Assembly: GCA_046483985.1 (NCBI GenBank)
Contig: JAWOCD010000119.1
Span: 1-20,389, forward strand
DNA: 20,389 bases
Direction of reading: 5' to 3'
From: Promethearchaeia archaeon
GTDB lineage: Archaea > Asgardarchaeota > Lokiarchaeia > Sigyniarchaeales > SOKP01
Part shown: in pieces, positions 7,099 through 20,389 of the stretch
Numbering within the stretch: the stretch's first letter is position 1
Layout: the number at the start of each line of letters is the position of its first letter
Notes under the pieces: generated by a model
The model's database searches: none
What the model saw: only the letters and a program-made list of their open reading frames with translations
Told to the model about the DNA's origin: nothing
Position numbers and translations under genes: made by a program

Positions 7099-7153
7099 TT
7101 TTATCTAAAAACTTCTTTTTGTAGTTATCCTTTTTGCTTTTTTATGAGTTAAA

Positions 7154-7300
7154 TTAATAGTCCTCTCTCGTCTCTATATATTCTACACTTGCGCTTTTGC
7201 AACATGGACAAATCTCAGTAACCATCCCCTGTAATTCTGTGTGGATAATATCGCTATCCCGTATCTCTGCTTGACACCCCATACATTTCCAAAATCCCAT
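7154..7300 (-). CDS. Small Zn-ribbon protein (48 aa)
   Basis: Below the track cutoff. GGAGGTGA RBS, then MGFWKCMGCQAEIRDSDIIHTELQGMVTEICPCCKSASVEYIETREDY. Confidence 0.75.
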   Translation of the reverse strand: MGFWKCMGCQAEIRDSDIIHTELQGMVTEICPCCKSASVEYIETREDY

Positions 7301-7326
7301 TATTTGCTCACCTCCTTATTTTTTAT

Positions 7327-9350: not shown

Positions 9351-9574
9351 TTTTTTAATTTTTGATAATATTTTTGATTAGAAAGGCATATTTGCCTATA
9401 GCCTCGAAATGAGGCTAATTTTGACCGAGAAAGGGAAATAACAGGGTGAGAGATACCCAAATGGTACAGGGTGAGGAGGGCAAAATCAATCGCGCAAAGC
9501 GCAATAACCAAAAGACAAAAATCCAGTGGGTTATCTCTCTTTTTAAGAAAGAGTTTACCTTTCTCGTATATCAT
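9347..9574 (-). CDS. Hypothetical protein with one hydrophobic segment
   Basis: 75-aa ORF filling the gap between flanking genes. Confidence 0.45.
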   Translation of the reverse strand: MIYEKGKLFLKKRDNPLDFCLLVIALCAIDFALLTLYHLGISHPVISLSRSKLASFRGYRQICLSNQKYYQKLKK

Positions 9575-11137: not shown

Positions 11138-11476
11138 TTATGTAATAATTTCTGAAAATTTGGGAAGGTCAGGTTTAACCTTCCCTTGGTTTTCCATGTT
11201 TTTTTTATGCAGTTTGACCATACCTTCATTTCTGGGCTCTCGGAAAATCACAGAAGGATATTCGTAATACCTTTCTGGGCCATTTCCGAGAATATTTTTA
11301 AAAGTCTCATCTTCCCAATCATGTTCGTCGCTGGGAGTAAACTCCCAAAAACCACAGTACGGGCAGAAATGAGCAAGTTTATTATCCTCGTCTGAGATGA
11401 AAAGTCCTAAATCCTTGGGAGAATATTCCCCCATGCAGTTATTGCAGACAAACCACAATTCTTCTTGATCTGACAT
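11138..11476 (-). CDS. Zn-finger protein; its N-terminal domain is paralogous to that of 13244..13831
   Basis: VCNNC...LGL...HFCPYCGFWEF. Confidence 0.8.
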   Translation of the reverse strand: MSDQEELWFVCNNCMGEYSPKDLGLFISDEDNKLAHFCPYCGFWEFTPSDEHDWEDETFKNILGNGPERYYEYPSVIFREPRNEGMVKLHKKNMENQGKVKPDLPKFSEIIT

Positions 11477-11683
11477 TTATTCGGACACCTCAATTGATTC
11501 TGACTGCATAGATTCCTCTAATAGATTTGCTAAAGGCATTTTTGCAGCTTGTTTTAGAATAAATCTAAGAGTCTCTGAATTGTTCTTTAAACCCAGAGCT
11601 TTTTTAATCTTTTTAAAATTCTGATATGCTATTCCAGATTTATTGAGGGCGACTCTTAGATCTATTGTTTTTAGATTTGACAT
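11477..11683 (-). CDS. RHH-like transcription regulator (left gene of the divergent pair)
   Basis: IDLRVAL...FKKIKKALGLKNNSETLRFILKQ. Confidence 0.8.
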   Translation of the reverse strand: MSNLKTIDLRVALNKSGIAYQNFKKIKKALGLKNNSETLRFILKQAAKMPLANLLEESMQSESIEVSE

Positions 11684-11751
11684 TATTTTATAGTCTCTTA
11701 TAATTTTTTTTAGTTTAATTTATCCAATTTTAGACATTATTATTATGGAAA

Positions 11752-11879
11752 AGTTCCTTTATAAAGTTATGGATAAAAATGGACAGAAAAAACCAAAAGG
11801 AACTAAACAAGCCAAAAACTTATGTAAGAGAAGAAGAATAGTTCCTTTATAAAGTTATGGATAAAAATGGACAGAAAAA
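11752..11879. repeat. Two exact 40-bp direct repeats, each with a palindromic TATA box
   Basis: AGTTCCTTTATAAAGTTATGGATAAAAATGGACAGAAAAA at 11752-11791 and 11840-11879; 48-bp spacer. Confidence 0.95.
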
Positions 11880-11888
11880 GATGAAAAA

Positions 11889-12050
11889 ATGGTTGTCCGT
11901 CTAATACTAAAAAAGAATCGGGATCAACCAATTTATGAGTTTTTTGAAAAGATTAAAACTCATTTAGGGTTGAAAGTAAATACAGAAGTTGCCCGATATT
12001 GTATTAAACGCACTTATGAGATGCTAAGAGAAAAAGGAAAGATTAAATAA
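11889..12050 (+). CDS. RHH-like transcription regulator (right gene of the divergent pair, 53 aa)
   Basis: Below the cutoff: MVVRLILKKNRDQPIYEFFEKIKTHLGLKVNTEVARYCIKRTYEMLREKGKIK, a clear paralogue of 11477..11683; TATA box at 11846-11853. Confidence 0.8.
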   Translation: MVVRLILKKNRDQPIYEFFEKIKTHLGLKVNTEVARYCIKRTYEMLREKGKIK

Positions 12051-12896: not shown

Positions 12897-13019
12897 TTTT
12901 ATTTTTTCATTATTTGTAGTATTTTTTTCCCTTTTACATGGCAAGGGTATATCCCTTGTCTTATGCTTATACTCGTGCAGAGCATAAGAAACATAAGAAA
13001 GAAAATAAAAAAATTAAAA

Positions 13020-13243: not shown

Positions 13244-13831
13244 TTAGGCTACCTTTTTGTAGTAGGTTTGTTCTGGAAATTTTGGAAGCCATGACTCCGC
13301 AGGTGCTCGGTAATACAGAAAATATTTTGTGTATCCGTTGTGGTATTCCTTGTCAAGTTCATAGAATTCAAAAGTCTCATTAAGGTCCGCAAACTCGGTG
13401 CGAAAGCGTTCAAAATCCTCGGAGTTGGAAACGAGAATCTCAATCTCAATCTCCTTCCATCTCTGGGCCTCCATCCATTCATAAGCTTTCTCCCGTGCCT
13501 CAATAATATGATCCCAGAACTCCCGTTCCGATTTGCGGAGGATTGTTTCAAAATCATCGCGACAATAAACATGATACTCGTTCTCAAAATGTGTCTGTGC
13601 CAATTCCTTTTTTAGATCGGTATTATGTTTGAATACTTCATCAGAATCCAGAAACTCCGTGAAATAACAACGCGGGCAATAATGTAAAATATGTCCGTCT
13701 GTATCCAGAGCCATGCCAAGGTTTCCAATTTCGTTGATTAGGCCGCAGTTCGTGCAAACTACGGATATTTGTTGGGTCTTATCATTTTCGCCAGTTTTAA
13801 GAGTTTGGTGCTCTTTTTCATTTGACAACAT
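13244..13831 (-). CDS. Zn-finger protein with an acidic C-terminal domain
   Basis: VCTNC...LGM...HYCPRCYFTEF; start moved to ATG 13831, 25 bp after a TATA box (leaderless). Confidence 0.82.
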   Translation of the reverse strand: MLSNEKEHQTLKTGENDKTQQISVVCTNCGLINEIGNLGMALDTDGHILHYCPRCYFTEFLDSDEVFKHNTDLKKELAQTHFENEYHVYCRDDFETILRKSEREFWDHIIEAREKAYEWMEAQRWKEIEIEILVSNSEDFERFRTEFADLNETFEFYELDKEYHNGYTKYFLYYRAPAESWLPKFPEQTYYKKVA

Positions 13832-13855
13832 ATAATATAATAATATCAAGGAGAC

Positions 13856-13870
13856 TATATAAAGGTTTCG
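13856..13870 (-). promoter_or_regulatory. Canonical archaeal promoter (BRE plus TATA)
   Basis: The minus strand reads CGAAA-CC-TTTATATA, 25 bp upstream of ATG 13831. Confidence 0.7.
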
Positions 13871-13925
13871 CATACGAAAATATAAACAGTACGAGTCTTT
13901 TTCACTTTTTTATATTTTCCCATTT

Positions 13926-14825
13926 TTAATCCTCCTCAAATTTTACATATATTTTAGTTCCATGGCGCTTTACTTTTGCCCCGCGTTTCCGTAATGCTCG
14001 TGCATGTCCGATTGCTGCGGGCTCGGTTTGGTGCTTCTTATGCAAAACAAAACCCTCCAAATCAGCTTTTGAATGGCGTTCGCTTTCACCCCACCATCCT
14101 CTCCCTTTTTTTGGTTTTTGCTCTTCTTTTTTACCTTTATTTAGATTTAGAGTAATCCCTTCTTCCTCCATATATTTCTTAACCTCTTCCCTTTGAATAG
14201 AGGATAAATCTGGGTCAAACTCAATATTAGTTACTTGTATTTTTTCAGGATTTTCTATAATCGCTTCATGTTCAGTTGGATATCTCACTAATTGATCTAT
14301 TGTATCTAATAGATCAATTTCCTTAATATCTATCTCAGCTTCAGCGAGATGTGTTACATATTTCATTCCCTCATCCTTAAAACCTTCAGAAGGGTCAAAG
14401 GACCATGAAGTATACTTATCTGGAGTTTCCTCGGTATAAATATTAAAAAGACGATAGATATAAATTGAATCATTTTCATCCTCAAGATAATACTTTAGCT
14501 GCTCTACGGCTTCCTTAATTTCGTTAATAGGATACTTCTCGAGCTTCTCAATTGCCTCTTTTTCTAACTCTTCCCATGCTATTTCTCGTGTGTCAGAAAT
14601 GTCAGAAATATCTAATCTTCCAACATACTCAAAATCAGCAGCTTGCGCTTTCTTGCTCCGCTTCTCATGCTCCTTTTTTGCCTTTTCTAATGAGATAAAT
14701 TCCCCGCCAAATCTCGGATTTAGAACTTTCTGTTTCCTCGAATACGAACTTACCTTTGTACCGTCTTTCCTGGTATATCCGCTTACATTAACCTTCTTTT
14801 TTACATATTTCTTTTTCTCTCTCAT
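13926..14825 (-). CDS. Putative R-S-E ADP-ribosyltransferase domain protein with basic terminal motifs
   Basis: IYIYR(125)...TSWS(139-142)...EHE(185-187)AII; N-terminal VSGYTRKDGTKVSSYSR; C-terminal GWWGESERHSKA. Confidence 0.72.
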   Translation of the reverse strand: MREKKKYVKKKVNVSGYTRKDGTKVSSYSRKQKVLNPRFGGEFISLEKAKKEHEKRSKKAQAADFEYVGRLDISDISDTREIAWEELEKEAIEKLEKYPINEIKEAVEQLKYYLEDENDSIYIYRLFNIYTEETPDKYTSWSFDPSEGFKDEGMKYVTHLAEAEIDIKEIDLLDTIDQLVRYPTEHEAIIENPEKIQVTNIEFDPDLSSIQREEVKKYMEEEGITLNLNKGKKEEQKPKKGRGWWGESERHSKADLEGFVLHKKHQTEPAAIGHARALRKRGAKVKRHGTKIYVKFEED

Positions 14826-14827
14826 CT

Positions 14828-15025
14828 TTACCTCCTCTTAGTACTTACTTTAATTTGCTCCCATTTTGGGTTCAGTCCGGCTGTCGTCTCCCGATTCTTA
14901 GTCTCTCTAATTATCTTCTTTGCCTCTTCATTAAAGTTTCGCGCGGAATAATAGAAATCTCGCTTTGCACAAAGCCTTAAAATCTCAGCATTAATTCTTT
15001 TGATTATTTCATCTATATTACACAT
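14828..15025 (-). CDS. Hypothetical protein
   Basis: 65 aa, directly after the ATPase stop; RBS-like AGGTGT upstream. Confidence 0.6.
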   Translation of the reverse strand: MCNIDEIIKRINAEILRLCAKRDFYYSARNFNEEAKKIIRETKNRETTAGLNPKWEQIKVSTKRR

Positions 15026-16288
15026 CTATGCAATTACACCTTGATTTTGCATTTCAATTTCATTTCTTGTATGGGAACTTTGCGCATTTCCCATAGATTT
15101 AATTTTAAATATATATCTTTTTTCAATATCAAACTTTTTCTTACATTTCTTACATTTGGTTCTAGGTCTTTTCAGAAGGGTATCTACAGAGTTGGGCGTA
15201 TATATCTGGTTATTCCCACATTTTGGACATTTTATAGGTATTTCCCAATTCCCATTAATTATGCTCACATTATCATTTGGCTCCATTAGATATTCTTTTG
15301 GTTGAGTTTGCCTATTTCGTTCACCAGTTTGTTCTTGCTCATTCTGGGTCTCTAATGTATCGATCGCCCTATAAATAACTTCTGTGAAACACCCGTCCGT
15401 AATATACATTTTACGCTCTAATTGTTTTAAATCATCTAACAACTTATGTAATCGCCCTTTTTGGCGTGCTCTGCTCCACTCCACAAAGTTGTCTATTTTC
15501 AGAATCTTGTCGATGAGTTTCTGTTTTTGCTTTGCCGCCATATTGTCCGCCTTGGCATATACAAATTGGATATTCTTTAAACCGCGTGTATCGGCATAGA
15601 AAAAGGTAAACATTTCGTCTTTATCAACCGCAATAGCCGTCTTACGCCACTCGTAATTGTGTTTTCTGACCGCCTCATCGTCCATATGTTTCAGTAAATC
15701 TACTAAATTATCATCCCAAATCATTTCTTCGGCTGCTTTTGAATATCCTTTGAATATGTGAAATGCACACATTTCCCGCAGTCGTTTATCAACCGCTTTT
15801 TGGTCTTGTGCTAATACGGCAAAGAATACTAATCCACCGGCGTGGCCGCTACCTTCTTCGGTTGCTCGATCTTGTAATTCGTGTCGAATTTTGTAGATAA
15901 CTTGCGACATCTTTGCATTCGCCATACTCTGCCGCGAATCTAACACATCGACCGCATCATCCAAAACCAAGAAATGAATCCACTTATTCGACCGACTTAC
16001 CTGTTCAATTGCCGCCCATACATCGTAGACTTCGCAGAAATTAACATTTCCTTCGCCCCAAATGGTATCCATTACATTTGCAAAATACCGCTTTACAAGC
16101 GTTGATTTACCGATCCCGACCGTACCGTTAGCGGTAAACGGGACAAACTCGTAATGATCCTTCGGAAATTCTTGGTTATCGGGCCATCCAAATGTTTCCG
16201 CTTCGAATTGTTCGGTGTTGCGGATAAAATCGTCTATGGTGGGCTGGTATCCTTGCATTTGACCCATCGCTTGTGTGAATTGCGCCAT
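15026..16288 (-). CDS. FtsK/HerA-superfamily (A32/Zot-like) packaging or extrusion ATPase with C-terminal Zn ribbon
   Basis: Walker A GTVGIGKST, Walker B FLVLDD, KIRH, LAQ and VDKRLRE motifs; CPKC..CKKC tail. Confidence 0.82.
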   Translation of the reverse strand: MAQFTQAMGQMQGYQPTIDDFIRNTEQFEAETFGWPDNQEFPKDHYEFVPFTANGTVGIGKSTLVKRYFANVMDTIWGEGNVNFCEVYDVWAAIEQVSRSNKWIHFLVLDDAVDVLDSRQSMANAKMSQVIYKIRHELQDRATEEGSGHAGGLVFFAVLAQDQKAVDKRLREMCAFHIFKGYSKAAEEMIWDDNLVDLLKHMDDEAVRKHNYEWRKTAIAVDKDEMFTFFYADTRGLKNIQFVYAKADNMAAKQKQKLIDKILKIDNFVEWSRARQKGRLHKLLDDLKQLERKMYITDGCFTEVIYRAIDTLETQNEQEQTGERNRQTQPKEYLMEPNDNVSIINGNWEIPIKCPKCGNNQIYTPNSVDTLLKRPRTKCKKCKKKFDIEKRYIFKIKSMGNAQSSHTRNEIEMQNQGVIA

Positions 16289-16291
16289 GTT

Positions 16292-17179
16292 TTATTTTTC
16301 ACCTTCTTTTTTTCCCTTTTTGTGTTTTTCTTCTATTTCTTTTCGTATCTCTCTTTTGTTTCCCCATTCTTCGTTTAATTTCTCTATTCGCTTTCGGTTT
16401 TTCTGCCCGATCTTGCGGTGTAGTCCACCGCCCTTTGCGGCATTTACGAATCCTTGTTCCAGATGGCTTCCTATTCCCGTCTCTGCTTGCAGCCCTTCTT
16501 CGTGTGCTTTGATTGCCAATTTATAGAGGCTTTCTAAATGCTCGAAATATTCGAATTCCCGCTCGACCGTGTATTCTTCATCTTTTGCTAAATGCTTAAG
16601 CGTGTCCATGAACGCGTCCATATGGTCGATGAATTCGCTTCGGTTGCTGCGATACGCGTCCTTCGTTTTCTCTCCGATTTCATCATCTTCGTAGCCCGCA
16701 TATTTGTATTTATAGCGCACCAAATCCCGTTTTAAACTCTTCAGTTTATTACTAATTATGAATATGCGGCATCCCTGCGGGTAGTCGGTCAGTTCGATTT
16801 CCTTTCCATGATGTCGTAACGCGCGTATTCTCTTCATATCCTCCACGGGACACGCGAATCTAACCGGTTGCAGTAGGTCTTGTAGATAGTAATAAGCATC
16901 ATCCCAATCTTCGTTCCAAATGTAGTGATCTAGAATGCGCTCGTGTGTCCCGAATCGGTTTGCGCTCAATCTACACGGTGCTCTCGGACATATATACACG
17001 CGTTTGCCGACTTTTTTGTAGCATCGCAACTTACCCCACGGGCATTTGTCGTACGCGTTTCTGCGTCTTTGCTCCGTTTTTCTCTGTTTTTCCGCTCCGT
17101 TGTTGTCGTCCGCATCTTGCTTTATTTCTTGTTTAGCCATTTGCTTTCTCACCTTGTTTTTTTGCTTGTTTTCGTTCAA
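16292..17179 (-). CDS. Hypothetical protein with a C2H2-like Zn finger
   Basis: 295 aa; YICPRAPC...F.....I..H; probable start at MAKQE. Confidence 0.75.
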   Translation of the reverse strand: MNENKQKNKVRKQMAKQEIKQDADDNNGAEKQRKTEQRRRNAYDKCPWGKLRCYKKVGKRVYICPRAPCRLSANRFGTHERILDHYIWNEDWDDAYYYLQDLLQPVRFACPVEDMKRIRALRHHGKEIELTDYPQGCRIFIISNKLKSLKRDLVRYKYKYAGYEDDEIGEKTKDAYRSNRSEFIDHMDAFMDTLKHLAKDEEYTVEREFEYFEHLESLYKLAIKAHEEGLQAETGIGSHLEQGFVNAAKGGGLHRKIGQKNRKRIEKLNEEWGNKREIRKEIEEKHKKGKKEGEK

Positions 17180-18998
17180 AATCTACCAATTTCTTTAGGT
17201 TTAGGTCAATCGGTGTGCCGTTTTGCTGTTGTTGTTCGTATAATTGGACGAGCATCTGTTTAATCTGTCGTACATCCATATCTATGTCCTTTCCTTCCGC
17301 CTTTGCGCGTGCTTCCACCAGGCGTTTCATCTCCCCAGCGAAGTCTTCTTTTGCGATGTCACCGAACATATCGACAAAGTATTTCTTAATACCGCCCCAT
17401 TTCTTATCCAGGGCACGGTCAATTTCTTTCATCGTTTCGGCATTTTCTTGGCGTATACTTTCTTTAGCAAGTTGTTTTTCCTTTTCGAGTTGTTGAATGC
17501 GTTTATTCTTTTCGTTAATCTGCGACCGCTGTTCGAGTATTAATTCGGTTAAATGTTTGTTGCGGGCTATATATGACTTCCGTAAATCTTCGATTTTGAG
17601 TTGATCGCGTTCTTTGTGGGTCTGTCCGATTTTCTCTATCGATTTTTTATCTATGCGAATCGTCTCGCTCTGCCGCATCTCTACGAGTTTCTCGTAGGCC
17701 TCTACGCGTTTGTTGTGAAACGGTTTCCAATTCTGCTCCTTTGTGCCGTCTTCGAGTTCGGTTTCGATGAGTTCTTCGCCATCCACTTCATATACATCAA
17801 TGACTTCAAACTTAGTCTCCATCGGGTTGAGATGTTTTTCCTTCTTTACCGTCTTTGTTTTCTTCTTGAAATTGACTTTGCTGTCGATGGCATACAATAT
17901 TGCTGCGATTATTAGCGACATAGGAACGGATACCGTAAGTGCGATGAGAAAATGCACACCAGAGAGTAATAGAATACCCAAGTAAATACACAGCTGGAGC
18001 GGGATGCCGTGAAAACTCCACTCGAACATTTTGATAACGAATCTCGCCAGTTTTACGGGAACCGAATAGCCGACTTGCTCCTCTTTGGCATCTACTCTCT
18101 TTTCATCCATGTATGCATTAAGGAGATACCGAATCCACAGGTAATTTTTGATGAGATGCTTGTTTTTGTAGTCCTCCATACTTACCATCGAATATAGGTT
18201 AAACCGCTTTACGCCCGACCGCATTTCGTAAATATATAACCCCCGATTCGGATCGAAGTCGGGTTTTTCGATGTTTTTCACTTCTCCTAATACTTCGAGT
18301 TCTTTGCTGCGCACTAATTCGCCTTTTTCGTTTTCCTTTACTTTATATGCTTCTATATAGACTTTTCTGCGAGCCTTCATAATCAACACTACGGTTGCCC
18401 AGGTAATGTTGCTGAAAAAGATCAGCGCCATTAGGAATACTTCGAACGACACGCTTCGGTCTTTTGCTTCATCTTCTTCCGATTCATCGGTCGTTTCTTC
18501 ATCCGCATCTTCTTCTGCGGGTGCTTCTGGCACAAACGGGTCTAATTGCATAATAAATCGCATTTGGTTTATTTCCAAAAAGACTTTGTTTCCGAAGTGG
18601 TCTCGATCCGCTTGCATTTCCAAAGTGTCGTTGTTAATTTTCGAATATACGAACATATTGTTTGTATTGCTCGAGATGTTGTATTCGGTGTCTTCATTAC
18701 CGAAAGATCCGCTTGTGATGTTTTCGTCCTTCGATTCTACAAAGAAATAATGATAATTCGCATCGTTCCCGTAGTCGATGGAAATGTTTTTCCAACTGAA
18801 TTGCTCTGAGTAGTCGGATTCCCGATTTAAATCCACTTCAAAATCGGGATAGTCGGTGTCCGCTCCAATTGCGAGTAATACGGCTGTTTCGGTAATACAC
18901 AGTGTAATTATGAATAGGAACAACACGCTTTTGAGTTTAAGCGACTTGTTCGTATTTCTGTTCTTAACGCGTATATGCGCGTTTATATATCCGTTCAT
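17133..18998 (-). CDS. Membrane protein: glycosylated ectodomain, acidic linker, about 4 TM, cytoplasmic coiled coil
   Basis: 621 aa; N-terminal hydrophobic helix, sequons NIS/NIT/NIS/NDT, EEDADEETTDESEEDE, further TM helices, long heptad region. Confidence 0.85.
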   Translation of the reverse strand: MNGYINAHIRVKNRNTNKSLKLKSVLFLFIITLCITETAVLLAIGADTDYPDFEVDLNRESDYSEQFSWKNISIDYGNDANYHYFFVESKDENITSGSFGNEDTEYNISSNTNNMFVYSKINNDTLEMQADRDHFGNKVFLEINQMRFIMQLDPFVPEAPAEEDADEETTDESEEDEAKDRSVSFEVFLMALIFFSNITWATVVLIMKARRKVYIEAYKVKENEKGELVRSKELEVLGEVKNIEKPDFDPNRGLYIYEMRSGVKRFNLYSMVSMEDYKNKHLIKNYLWIRYLLNAYMDEKRVDAKEEQVGYSVPVKLARFVIKMFEWSFHGIPLQLCIYLGILLLSGVHFLIALTVSVPMSLIIAAILYAIDSKVNFKKKTKTVKKEKHLNPMETKFEVIDVYEVDGEELIETELEDGTKEQNWKPFHNKRVEAYEKLVEMRQSETIRIDKKSIEKIGQTHKERDQLKIEDLRKSYIARNKHLTELILEQRSQINEKNKRIQQLEKEKQLAKESIRQENAETMKEIDRALDKKWGGIKKYFVDMFGDIAKEDFAGEMKRLVEARAKAEGKDIDMDVRQIKQMLVQLYEQQQQNGTPIDLNLKKLVDFERKQAKKQGEKANG

Positions 18999-19007
18999 TT
19001 TTTCGAT

Positions 19008-19619
19008 TCACACTCCTTTTTTAGCCCATTCTTGATATTTTGTCAGCCCTTGCGGGATTACAAAGAACAGAACCGAGAATATTGTTTGAGTAGCGGTGTC
19101 GAATGACAGCGTAAAACTCTGAAATACGGGTGCAATTACCCAAGTCACCAATAAGAATAGACACCATAGAATAACGATGATGCCTTTTCGGATTTCCGTG
19201 CCGTATTGCTTCCAAAAGGAAACGATCACCGCTACGATAAAGATAATATAGACCGCAAACACGATTAATTTGGTGAGCGTGACCGTGAAATCGGCATTTT
19301 TTTCGACCATCGACACTACGCCTAGCCGCCATAACGAAATCAAAAACAACAATATCCCCAATAACGCATAAAATATCTTTAACGTCACCCGTTTTGTGCT
19401 GGTATCCATACGGTTGATAAGGAATGCTATAAACTCGATGGCGCTCATTAACACTATACCCATCAAGAACGGGATGGCATCTACGGGTATGGCATGAAAT
19501 ACATTTATAAACTGCTGTTCGATCCAAGCGAACATCGCATCCAAGATCGCCCAAAAGACGAGAAATACATCGAAAAATTCTTTTCCCGCATCCGCGACAC
19601 TTCTAATATCTAATATCAT
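19008..19619 (-). CDS. Multi-pass membrane protein (about 5-6 TM)
   Basis: 203 aa, almost entirely hydrophobic helices. Confidence 0.85.
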   Translation of the reverse strand: MILDIRSVADAGKEFFDVFLVFWAILDAMFAWIEQQFINVFHAIPVDAIPFLMGIVLMSAIEFIAFLINRMDTSTKRVTLKIFYALLGILLFLISLWRLGVVSMVEKNADFTVTLTKLIVFAVYIIFIVAVIVSFWKQYGTEIRKGIIVILWCLFLLVTWVIAPVFQSFTLSFDTATQTIFSVLFFVIPQGLTKYQEWAKKGV

Positions 19620-19809: not shown

Positions 19810-20389
19810 TTATTTAAATCCTCCTTTTTTTGCTGGTTTCGCTTCTATTTTACCATCTTTGATTCTGAATTCCTGTATTTCTCCCCAATCTGCTTCATCT
19901 TGCCGTAATCTGTCGATGAACGGTTTCAACTTACTCGACAATATCTCTCCGATCTCTTCGACTATCTGTTCGTTCTTTTTCAAATAGTAATAGACTCCGA
20001 TTAACGCGCCCGCCACACCGATAAGCGGGAGACCTTGTAATAGCATCTCCAGAGGCTCCACATAATTGATATGTATCTTGACGACCGACCTCCCTTCTGG
20101 CAGTTCATTTACATAAAAGAACAGATATCCTTCGTAATCGCCCGAGTCGGAAAGTCCGAAGACCGAGGTTGTATTGCTTATGAGTTCTAAATCATGTAAT
20201 TGTGACGGGTTAAACTGATATTTAAAGTAACATTTTTGTACGTTTAAACTCGAGTTAATAGTAATCGTGATTAGATCAGTGTCTTTATTCCAATCCCAGT
20301 CAACTTTCCGAAACGGATTTACCTTGAAATGCGCATACGAATCTTCAATGCTCGGGTCAAATCCCTGTGTCCGCTCAATAGATACCAGT
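19810..20389 (-). CDS. C-terminal part of a membrane-anchored surface protein (5' end outside the window)
   Basis: The frame of track ORF 19810..20061 is open to base 20389 (LVSIERTQGFDPSIEDSYAHF...); beta-rich region with sequons, then a TM (LPLIGVAGALIGVYYYL-KK) and a cytoplasmic tail. Confidence 0.85.
   Translation of the reverse strand, partial: LVSIERTQGFDPSIEDSYAHFKVNPFRKVDWDWNKDTDLITITINSSLNVQKCYFKYQFNPSQLHDLELISNTTSVFGLSDSGDYEGYLFFYVNELPEGRSVVKIHINYVEPLEMLLQGLPLIGVAGALIGVYYYLKKNEQIVEEIGEILSSKLKPFIDRLRQDEADWGEIQEFRIKDGKIEAKPAKKGGFK

Follow-up and report, generated by a model that had tools for sequence, protein, structure and literature searches.

Is the 299-aa open reading frame on the minus strand at 13926..14825 an ADP-ribosyltransferase (ART), and what are the basic segments on either side of its core for? 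The window, i.e., the whole stretch of DNA analysed (20,389 nt), is the entire contig C56 of a bin of 4.06 Mb with 35% GC. The protein is a mosaic in which a minimal R-S-E domain is combined with two portable basic tags, A and B; in other elements these tags are found on many unrelated cargos, frequently as arrays of tandem genes. The preliminary description of this DNA had considered an Asgard archaeon as a possible host. This host is supported because the bin carries four actin genes, a mark of Asgard archaea, and because related proviruses were found in genomes of the same family and order. Among the contig's genes are those for an integrase and an MCM helicase, together with an ASCH gene and one that is topoisomerase-like. 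The window yielded no identified capsid protein and no recognisable HK97 or jelly-roll capsid gene; a portal or terminase was likewise not found in the element, and no head protease was present among the window proteins scanned against Pfam and PHROG. Two small two-TM ORFs (2362-2571 and 2082-2369) had no family match and were not confirmed as encoding a His1-like capsid protein; the contig may be incomplete. Neither a tRNA nor a CRISPR spacer link to the host was found for the contig. A secreted-type ORF is truncated at the left contig end (1-1490) and a C-anchored ORF enters on the same strand from the right end (19810-20389), both ends cutting a minus-strand surface-protein gene. These are possibly one gene of a broken circular genome, with no terminal overlap found.

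The ORF is immediately preceded by an SD-like GAGGAGGT and consists of tag A, the ART-like domain, a linker, tag B and a small C-terminal module, all on the minus strand. Tag A (aa 1-62; 14640..14825) consists of a basic beta-hairpin (V-x-V-x-G-Y-x-R-x-D-G type) and, after it, a helix. Two acidic helices (aa 80-116; 14478..14588), common to the homologue P0002 described below, precede the minimal R-S-E (ExE) ART-like core (aa 117-205; 14211..14477). The linker (aa 206-235; 14121..14210), missing in P0002, contains a possible internal start at M219 with GAGGT 10 nt upstream. Tag B (aa 236-254; 14064..14120) is K-rich, of the G-W-x-G-E-S-x-R-H-S type, and is mostly N-terminal in other elements. 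The C-terminal module (aa 255-299; 13926..14063) is basic and made of a helix and a beta-hairpin, with no homologue in 161 genomes of the class. Core motifs are present at Y124-R125 (R125, 14451-14453), S140-W141-S142 (S140, 14406-14408) and E185-x-E187 (E185, 14271-14273; E187, 14265-14267), with spacings of 15 and 45 aa. Their order and spacing, and the two peptides quoted from the arms (aa 14-25 and aa 243-254), are as the preliminary description gave them, and agree with the layout of the R-S-E ART superfamily, in which R lies on strand 1, S-x-S on strand 2 and the catalytic E on strand 5. Its very basic flanks are borne out for the N-terminal arm, with a net charge per 20 aa of +8 at aa 1-20, but only in part for the C-terminal arm, where aa 241-270 are about neutral and basicity lies mainly at aa 261-299 (+7 at aa 271-290); the acidic stretch at aa 61-230 ranges from -1 to -6.

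The loose R..SxS..ExE pattern alone is weak and does not go beyond chance, being found in 6.3% of shuffles and in 98 of 5993 host ORFs. A stricter pattern, set after the protein had been seen, was matched by one of the 5993 host ORFs (this one) and by none of 20000 shuffles. Searching 1.8 billion representatives returned a sole homologue, P0002 (186 aa; 54-56% identical), from microbial-mat metagenomes, so that two sequences are known in all. It retains all seven motif residues (Y-R, S-W-S and E-x-E), and the conservation of R, S and E that the preliminary description had named as a check is therefore upheld in this single homologue. Identity to P0002 was 8/10 at aa 120-129 and 12/17 at aa 138-154, compared to 16/40 at aa 80-119. 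A second candidate, P0003, was rejected as a repeat artefact, and the weak class-wide matches to the core that were inspected were unrelated radical-SAM, cupin and similar proteins. Related-locus searches with the whole protein, the core or the leader were empty.

In the ESM Atlas, the neighbours of the window core were DUF4765/EspN (0.93) and DRAT (0.89), while those of the P0002 core were DRAT (ranked first) and DUF4765 (0.91), then Mod ART (0.84), ADPrib_exo_Tox, NarE and DUF7587. The scores overall ranged from 0.83 to 0.93 and serve as leads, given that 4-10% of shuffled proteins reach 0.9; the Pfam-named neighbours other than DUF7587 are all ART-fold families. Judged by these model-derived neighbours, it appears unlikely that two sequences would both land on several ART families by chance. 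DUF4765 is structurally ART-like, and its NAD+ binding was not detected in CNFY (PMC7883292). AF2 models were too poor for reading a split beta-sheet ART fold (pLDDT 39.8 for the full protein; 37.1 for the core with a two-sequence alignment), and Foldseek on the low-confidence model returned nothing. Pfam, PHROG, NCBIfam and PDB sequence searches of the window protein gave no ART match, DRAT and DUF4765 HMMs found nothing in its own genome (the DUF4765 control was also without a match), and no Alt or Mod sequence homology was detected in PHROG or by phage tblastn. A phage family widespread among viral contigs (L194-L311) consists of proteins of ~220 aa that terminate in a minimal Y-R-G / S-W-T / E-x-E-V domain. 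This motif-picked family had no Pfam or PDB match, its HMM gave no significant score on the window or P0002 core, and an hhalign comparison extended over the first two strands only (probability 6.7%). The 15/45-aa spacing falls in the range of the family, which had been selected for such spacing, and the residue after Y-R is Leu in the window core compared to the Gly required in the phage-family search.

The ART assignment of the preliminary description thus stands as far as motif conservation and the neighbours DRAT, DUF4765, Mod ART, ADPrib_exo_Tox and NarE are concerned, although HMM searches gave no significant match and structure prediction no confident model. We are fairly confident that the core has an ART fold, and consider transferase activity a reasonable, less secure prediction. 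In ARTs of the iota, C2, Alt and DraT types the ExE motif goes with arginine mono-ADP-ribosylation, and it is from this rule only that arginine specificity is suggested, by analogy, for the window core. R-S-E ExE ARTs include DraT (PF07357), ModA/B (PF26816), iota/C2/VIP2 (PF03496), NarE (PF21641) and the ART-like DUF4765 (PF15962). They share with the window core R, S-x-S and E-x-E in order and in a strand-like context and are its nearest named clusters by features; the window core is, however, much smaller and has no HMM match to any of them.

Tag A is the part best modelled by AF2, with strands at 7-14 and 28-35. P0002 comes from locus L007, where it is encoded by the second gene of a tandem series of four; these genes have a common ~52-aa basic leader and mutually unrelated cargos. 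The leaders are conserved at the DNA level and near-identical between copies. A leaderless relative of cargo 3 (L007:10551-11195) lies at L007 13-462 (z 7.5). Cargo 4 (L007:11188-11760) contains Y-H-T-T ... Y-M-F, by eye reminiscent of H-clade ART folds, and has no family match. The array is surrounded by accessory and methyltransferase genes, with no recognisable virion genes within the 20 kb examined. A further two tandem genes with a common leader were found at L041, in a Lokiarchaeia-class genome of the same family and another genus (G155), and an HMM of this leader ranked the window protein top of ~6000 ORFs (E 0.0015; 42% identity). Against the L007 leaders alone, the window leader gave a non-significant E of about 1.3, and its link to them is drawn because of the shared cargo and a generic phage hairpin HMM. 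This HMM, which is partly circular in that its search pattern was derived from the window, scored the window protein at E 2.7e-9 and placed the four L007 leaders among the next six matches. The V-x-V-x-G-Y-x-R-x-D-G hairpin, a mini-module without a name, is very frequent on phage contigs, where it was found at >115 loci (including L060-L139). At the 80 viral loci examined it was N-terminal in 30, C-terminal in 34, stand-alone in 12 and internal in four; it often follows a signal peptide or sits at the extreme C-terminus, and the stand-alone peptides measure 40-50 aa. Because it also occurs after signal peptides and at C-termini in many phage and bacterial proteins, the hairpin is not virion-specific. 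A metagenome search for the tag A helix with a strict pattern returned nothing leader-like.

Tag B was recovered independently of the window: an HMM built from 14 outside copies scored the window protein at E 1.8e-7, with the next match at E 5. In G400, a complete 74-kb element read in part, tag B is N-terminal on at least 22 unrelated proteins. An array of at least 10 tag B genes is present in a euryarchaeal MAG, and single tagged genes occur in Mnemosynella and Woesearchaeota MAGs. In a tailed phage, small basic tag B proteins flank the terminase and portal genes. The tag lies at the C-terminal end in one L331 gene and inside the chain in the window protein; named cargos include DUF3140 and DUF2958, and at L339 a tag B gene adjoins a gene beginning with a tag-A-like hairpin (recognised by eye). 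Two tag B cargos of G400 (L318:7651-8232 and L318:8229-8810) look ART-like by eye, one of the H-A-T type and one of the R-x-G ... F-F-S ... N-P-L type, with no Pfam or PHROG match. The swappable core that the preliminary description had envisaged was therefore confirmed in reverse, the tags recurring with other cargos. Its scaffold protein was not, as the arms are two separate portable tags and P0002 ends directly after the ART domain, where the window linker starts. Because of this coincidence, two tagged genes that used to be separate, a tagA-ART and a tagB-module, seem to have been joined in frame to give the window protein. A tidal-flat run contig matches 13890-14062 (aa 255-299; 5 differences in 173 nt) and diverges at the tag B boundary, its next ~180 nt being unlike the window, which may hint at further swapping. 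An apparent joint of 14131-15118 in run X2 was rejected; it begins in a T-rich tract and has a 25-nt side. The core was without read cover in X2 and in RNA run X3, which is uninformative.

The genes around the ORF correct the preliminary description in two respects. It had put the gene directly after the ATPase and at the end of the operon, but a coupled 65-aa ORF (14828..15025, minus strand) lies between the two, and a 209-aa Zn-finger ORF (13244..13873, minus strand; N-terminus paralogous with 11138-11476) begins 52 bp past the ART gene, likewise on the minus strand. A terminator-like site was not found in the gap, so that the ART gene may not be the last of the operon. The P-loop ATPase (15026..16288, minus strand) has a C-terminal Zn ribbon and Walker A and B motifs read from sequence, is kept in related proviruses, and probably serves packaging or extrusion. 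It had no ATPase match in Pfam or PHROG and no match among GenBank phages, and a search of viral contigs was empty; its relatives occur in genomes of the same family and order as the host. One relative, in a G012 element (L044:4202-5050), is an ORF without the N-terminal Walker A region. Genes for a 295-aa protein, a 621-aa membrane/coiled-coil protein and a 203-aa multi-TM protein (16292..19619, minus strand) follow the block order of the G051 provirus, in which a multi-TM gene, a ~630-aa gene, a ~240-aa gene and the ATPase are succeeded by a cargo-less 77-aa basic protein. Matches were to G017 for the 295-aa gene and to G051 for the 621-aa gene; the TM gene corresponds by position only. The slot behind the ATPase is variable among related elements. 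A small RHH-like protein (11477-11683) has relatives 35-49% identical in L007 and the G051 provirus, linking these elements with the window.

The layout resembles that of Wyrdviruses and other spindle-shaped or extruded Asgard viruses (10.1101/2021.07.29.453957) but falls short of the Wyrdvirus definition. Both have a lokiarchaeal host, both carry a TopoVI-A-like (mini-A) gene and an ASCH gene, and in both a soluble ATPase is encoded downstream of membrane genes and a surface-protein gene. The window, however, has three rather than five genes between the surface protein and the ATPase, MCM and integrase instead of pPolB or HUH, and no identified His1-like capsid protein. The Wyrdvirus ATPase is pI-like; that of the window is unclassified.

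In our proposal, the gene would encode a cargo effector that evolves fast and belongs to a virus-like element of the Lokiarchaeia class whose morphogenesis genes are of membrane type. Its core, to go by the motifs and the language-model neighbours, probably has an ART fold and uses NAD+; the basic tags may bind viral DNA or a common core partner; the protein would be produced together with the morphogenesis genes and carried in the particle; and the ART would be released at infection and modify a host protein of transcription or defence. As a tentative reading, to which we give slightly less than an even chance, the protein would be a tagged ART effector that can be swapped and that, like T4 Alt, accompanies the viral DNA; its delivery in virions is proposed solely by analogy and from where the gene lies. 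Phages are known to package ARTs in their virions (PMC9503650, PMC9958956, PMC5512222). The closest comparison is T4 Alt and its CTS (PMC9958956, PMC9503650), where a viral ART travels with the genome, as proposed here, and a short N-terminal peptide is common to unrelated cargos; a CTS-like feature of this kind, a short tag common to unrelated cargos, was found here. T4 is, however, a tailed HK97-type phage with a head protease, and its CTS of ~10 aa is removed by the prohead protease, whereas the window element has an Asgard host, a ~90-aa ART core and two long basic tags of unrelated sequence, with no sequence link to Alt or Mod except the 0.84 language-model match to Mod. Polyvalent and MuF-fused ART effectors (PMC5512222) are modular too: their effector domains, which belong to mobile elements, are shuffled and predicted to accompany the DNA. 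Polyvalent proteins are, in contrast, large and multidomain, occur mostly in terminase-portal phages and conjugative elements and are scarce in archaea, and their ARTs belong to the H-Y-D/E clade (PMC5512222); the window gene is a small single-cargo gene behind short tags. In the PBCV-specific basic adaptor domain of kinases A278L and A282L (PMC3281028), a small basic module is similarly placed on an enzyme and associated with virion DNA, but in a eukaryotic chlorovirus and with no sequence match to the window protein found. We have likened the window protein to T4 Alt with its CTS or to the chlorovirus adaptor kinases as working models; by sequence it falls in neither family.

Alternatively, the protein might be an active ART that acts within the cell during infection or lysogeny and never enters a particle, with the tags serving as general anchors to nucleic acid or polyanions by which cargos reach DNA, chromatin or ribosomes, e.g., for modifying nucleic acid or a DNA-bound defence protein. 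The position-independence of the tags (tag B C-terminal or internal; the hairpin N-terminal, C-terminal or alone) would fit this reading, as would the accessory and methyltransferase genes around the L007 array, the lack of visible virion genes there, and the absence of an identified cleavage site or head protease. The gene is, however, coupled to the ATPase block, a bare basic protein occupies the same slot in the G051 relative, and tag B peptides lie beside terminase and portal genes in the tailed phage; we regard an unpackaged enzyme as less likely than carriage in the particle, though as the chief contender to it.

The remaining explanations concern the core itself. An ART fold lacking transferase activity, or a domain acting purely as a NADase or as a decoy that binds NAD, to counter NAD-based defence, is improbable: R, S-x-S and both glutamates are intact in the window protein and P0002, and DRAT, an arginine ART, is first-ranked for P0002, although the nearest named neighbour of the window core is DUF4765, with its undetected NAD+ binding, and the core is minimal with Leu replacing Gly after Y-R. 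We give equally little credence to the core not being an ART at all, i.e., a chance motif in an unrelated acidic cargo, with the tags acting as recombination handles (promoter/leader cassettes). The 6% of shuffles with the loose pattern, the negative or weak outcome of all alignment-based tests and the near-identical leader DNA among L007 copies would agree with it. Conservation is, however, maximal at the R and S strands, two sequences reached several ART families in separate searches, and the tag peptides are recognisable across distant elements. A bolder form of the preferred reading, of a tagged ART carried with viral DNA, would have two interchangeable basic tags loading effector arrays into particles of non-HK97 membrane-type archaeal viruses, with one effector an arginine ART acting on a eukaryote-like Asgard target such as, speculatively, actin or RNA polymerase, two targets that the preliminary description had raised; its likelihood appears low.

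No ART in an Asgard virus was found in the open-access papers on Asgard viruses that we searched, and archaeal-virus ARTs in the literature searched are only annotations in two haloarchaeal tailed viruses. New here are an Asgard element with an R-S-E ART-like cargo, arrays of tag A genes in elements of the Lokiarchaeia class and the presence of both tags in one protein; tag-plus-cargo arrays as such resemble, by analogy, the T4 CTS system. Expressing the soluble domain of ~125 aa is easy, and from its substrate one would learn what machinery of Asgard hosts is attacked by viruses, close to the origin of eukaryotes. With both tag families on a cargo of assayable predicted activity, tag function becomes testable. 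If the actin or RNA polymerase reading were true, archaeal viruses would have in this protein their counterpart to T4 Alt and to ARTs that modify actin.

Several repeated or shared sequence stretches of the contig were also observed. Upstream of the RHH-like gene, an intergenic 44-nt direct repeat (11748-11889; copies 88 nt apart and 98% identical) is a possible origin or operator. A ~55-nt element (9473-9526) with copies 88-100% identical on host contigs C45, C66, C86 and C98 could be a mobile-element end or a shared regulatory site. Near-identical copies of 7151-7326 and 12920-13000 are present at the ends of the small contigs C34 (100%) and C121 (95%), which suggests that this bin contains related elements.
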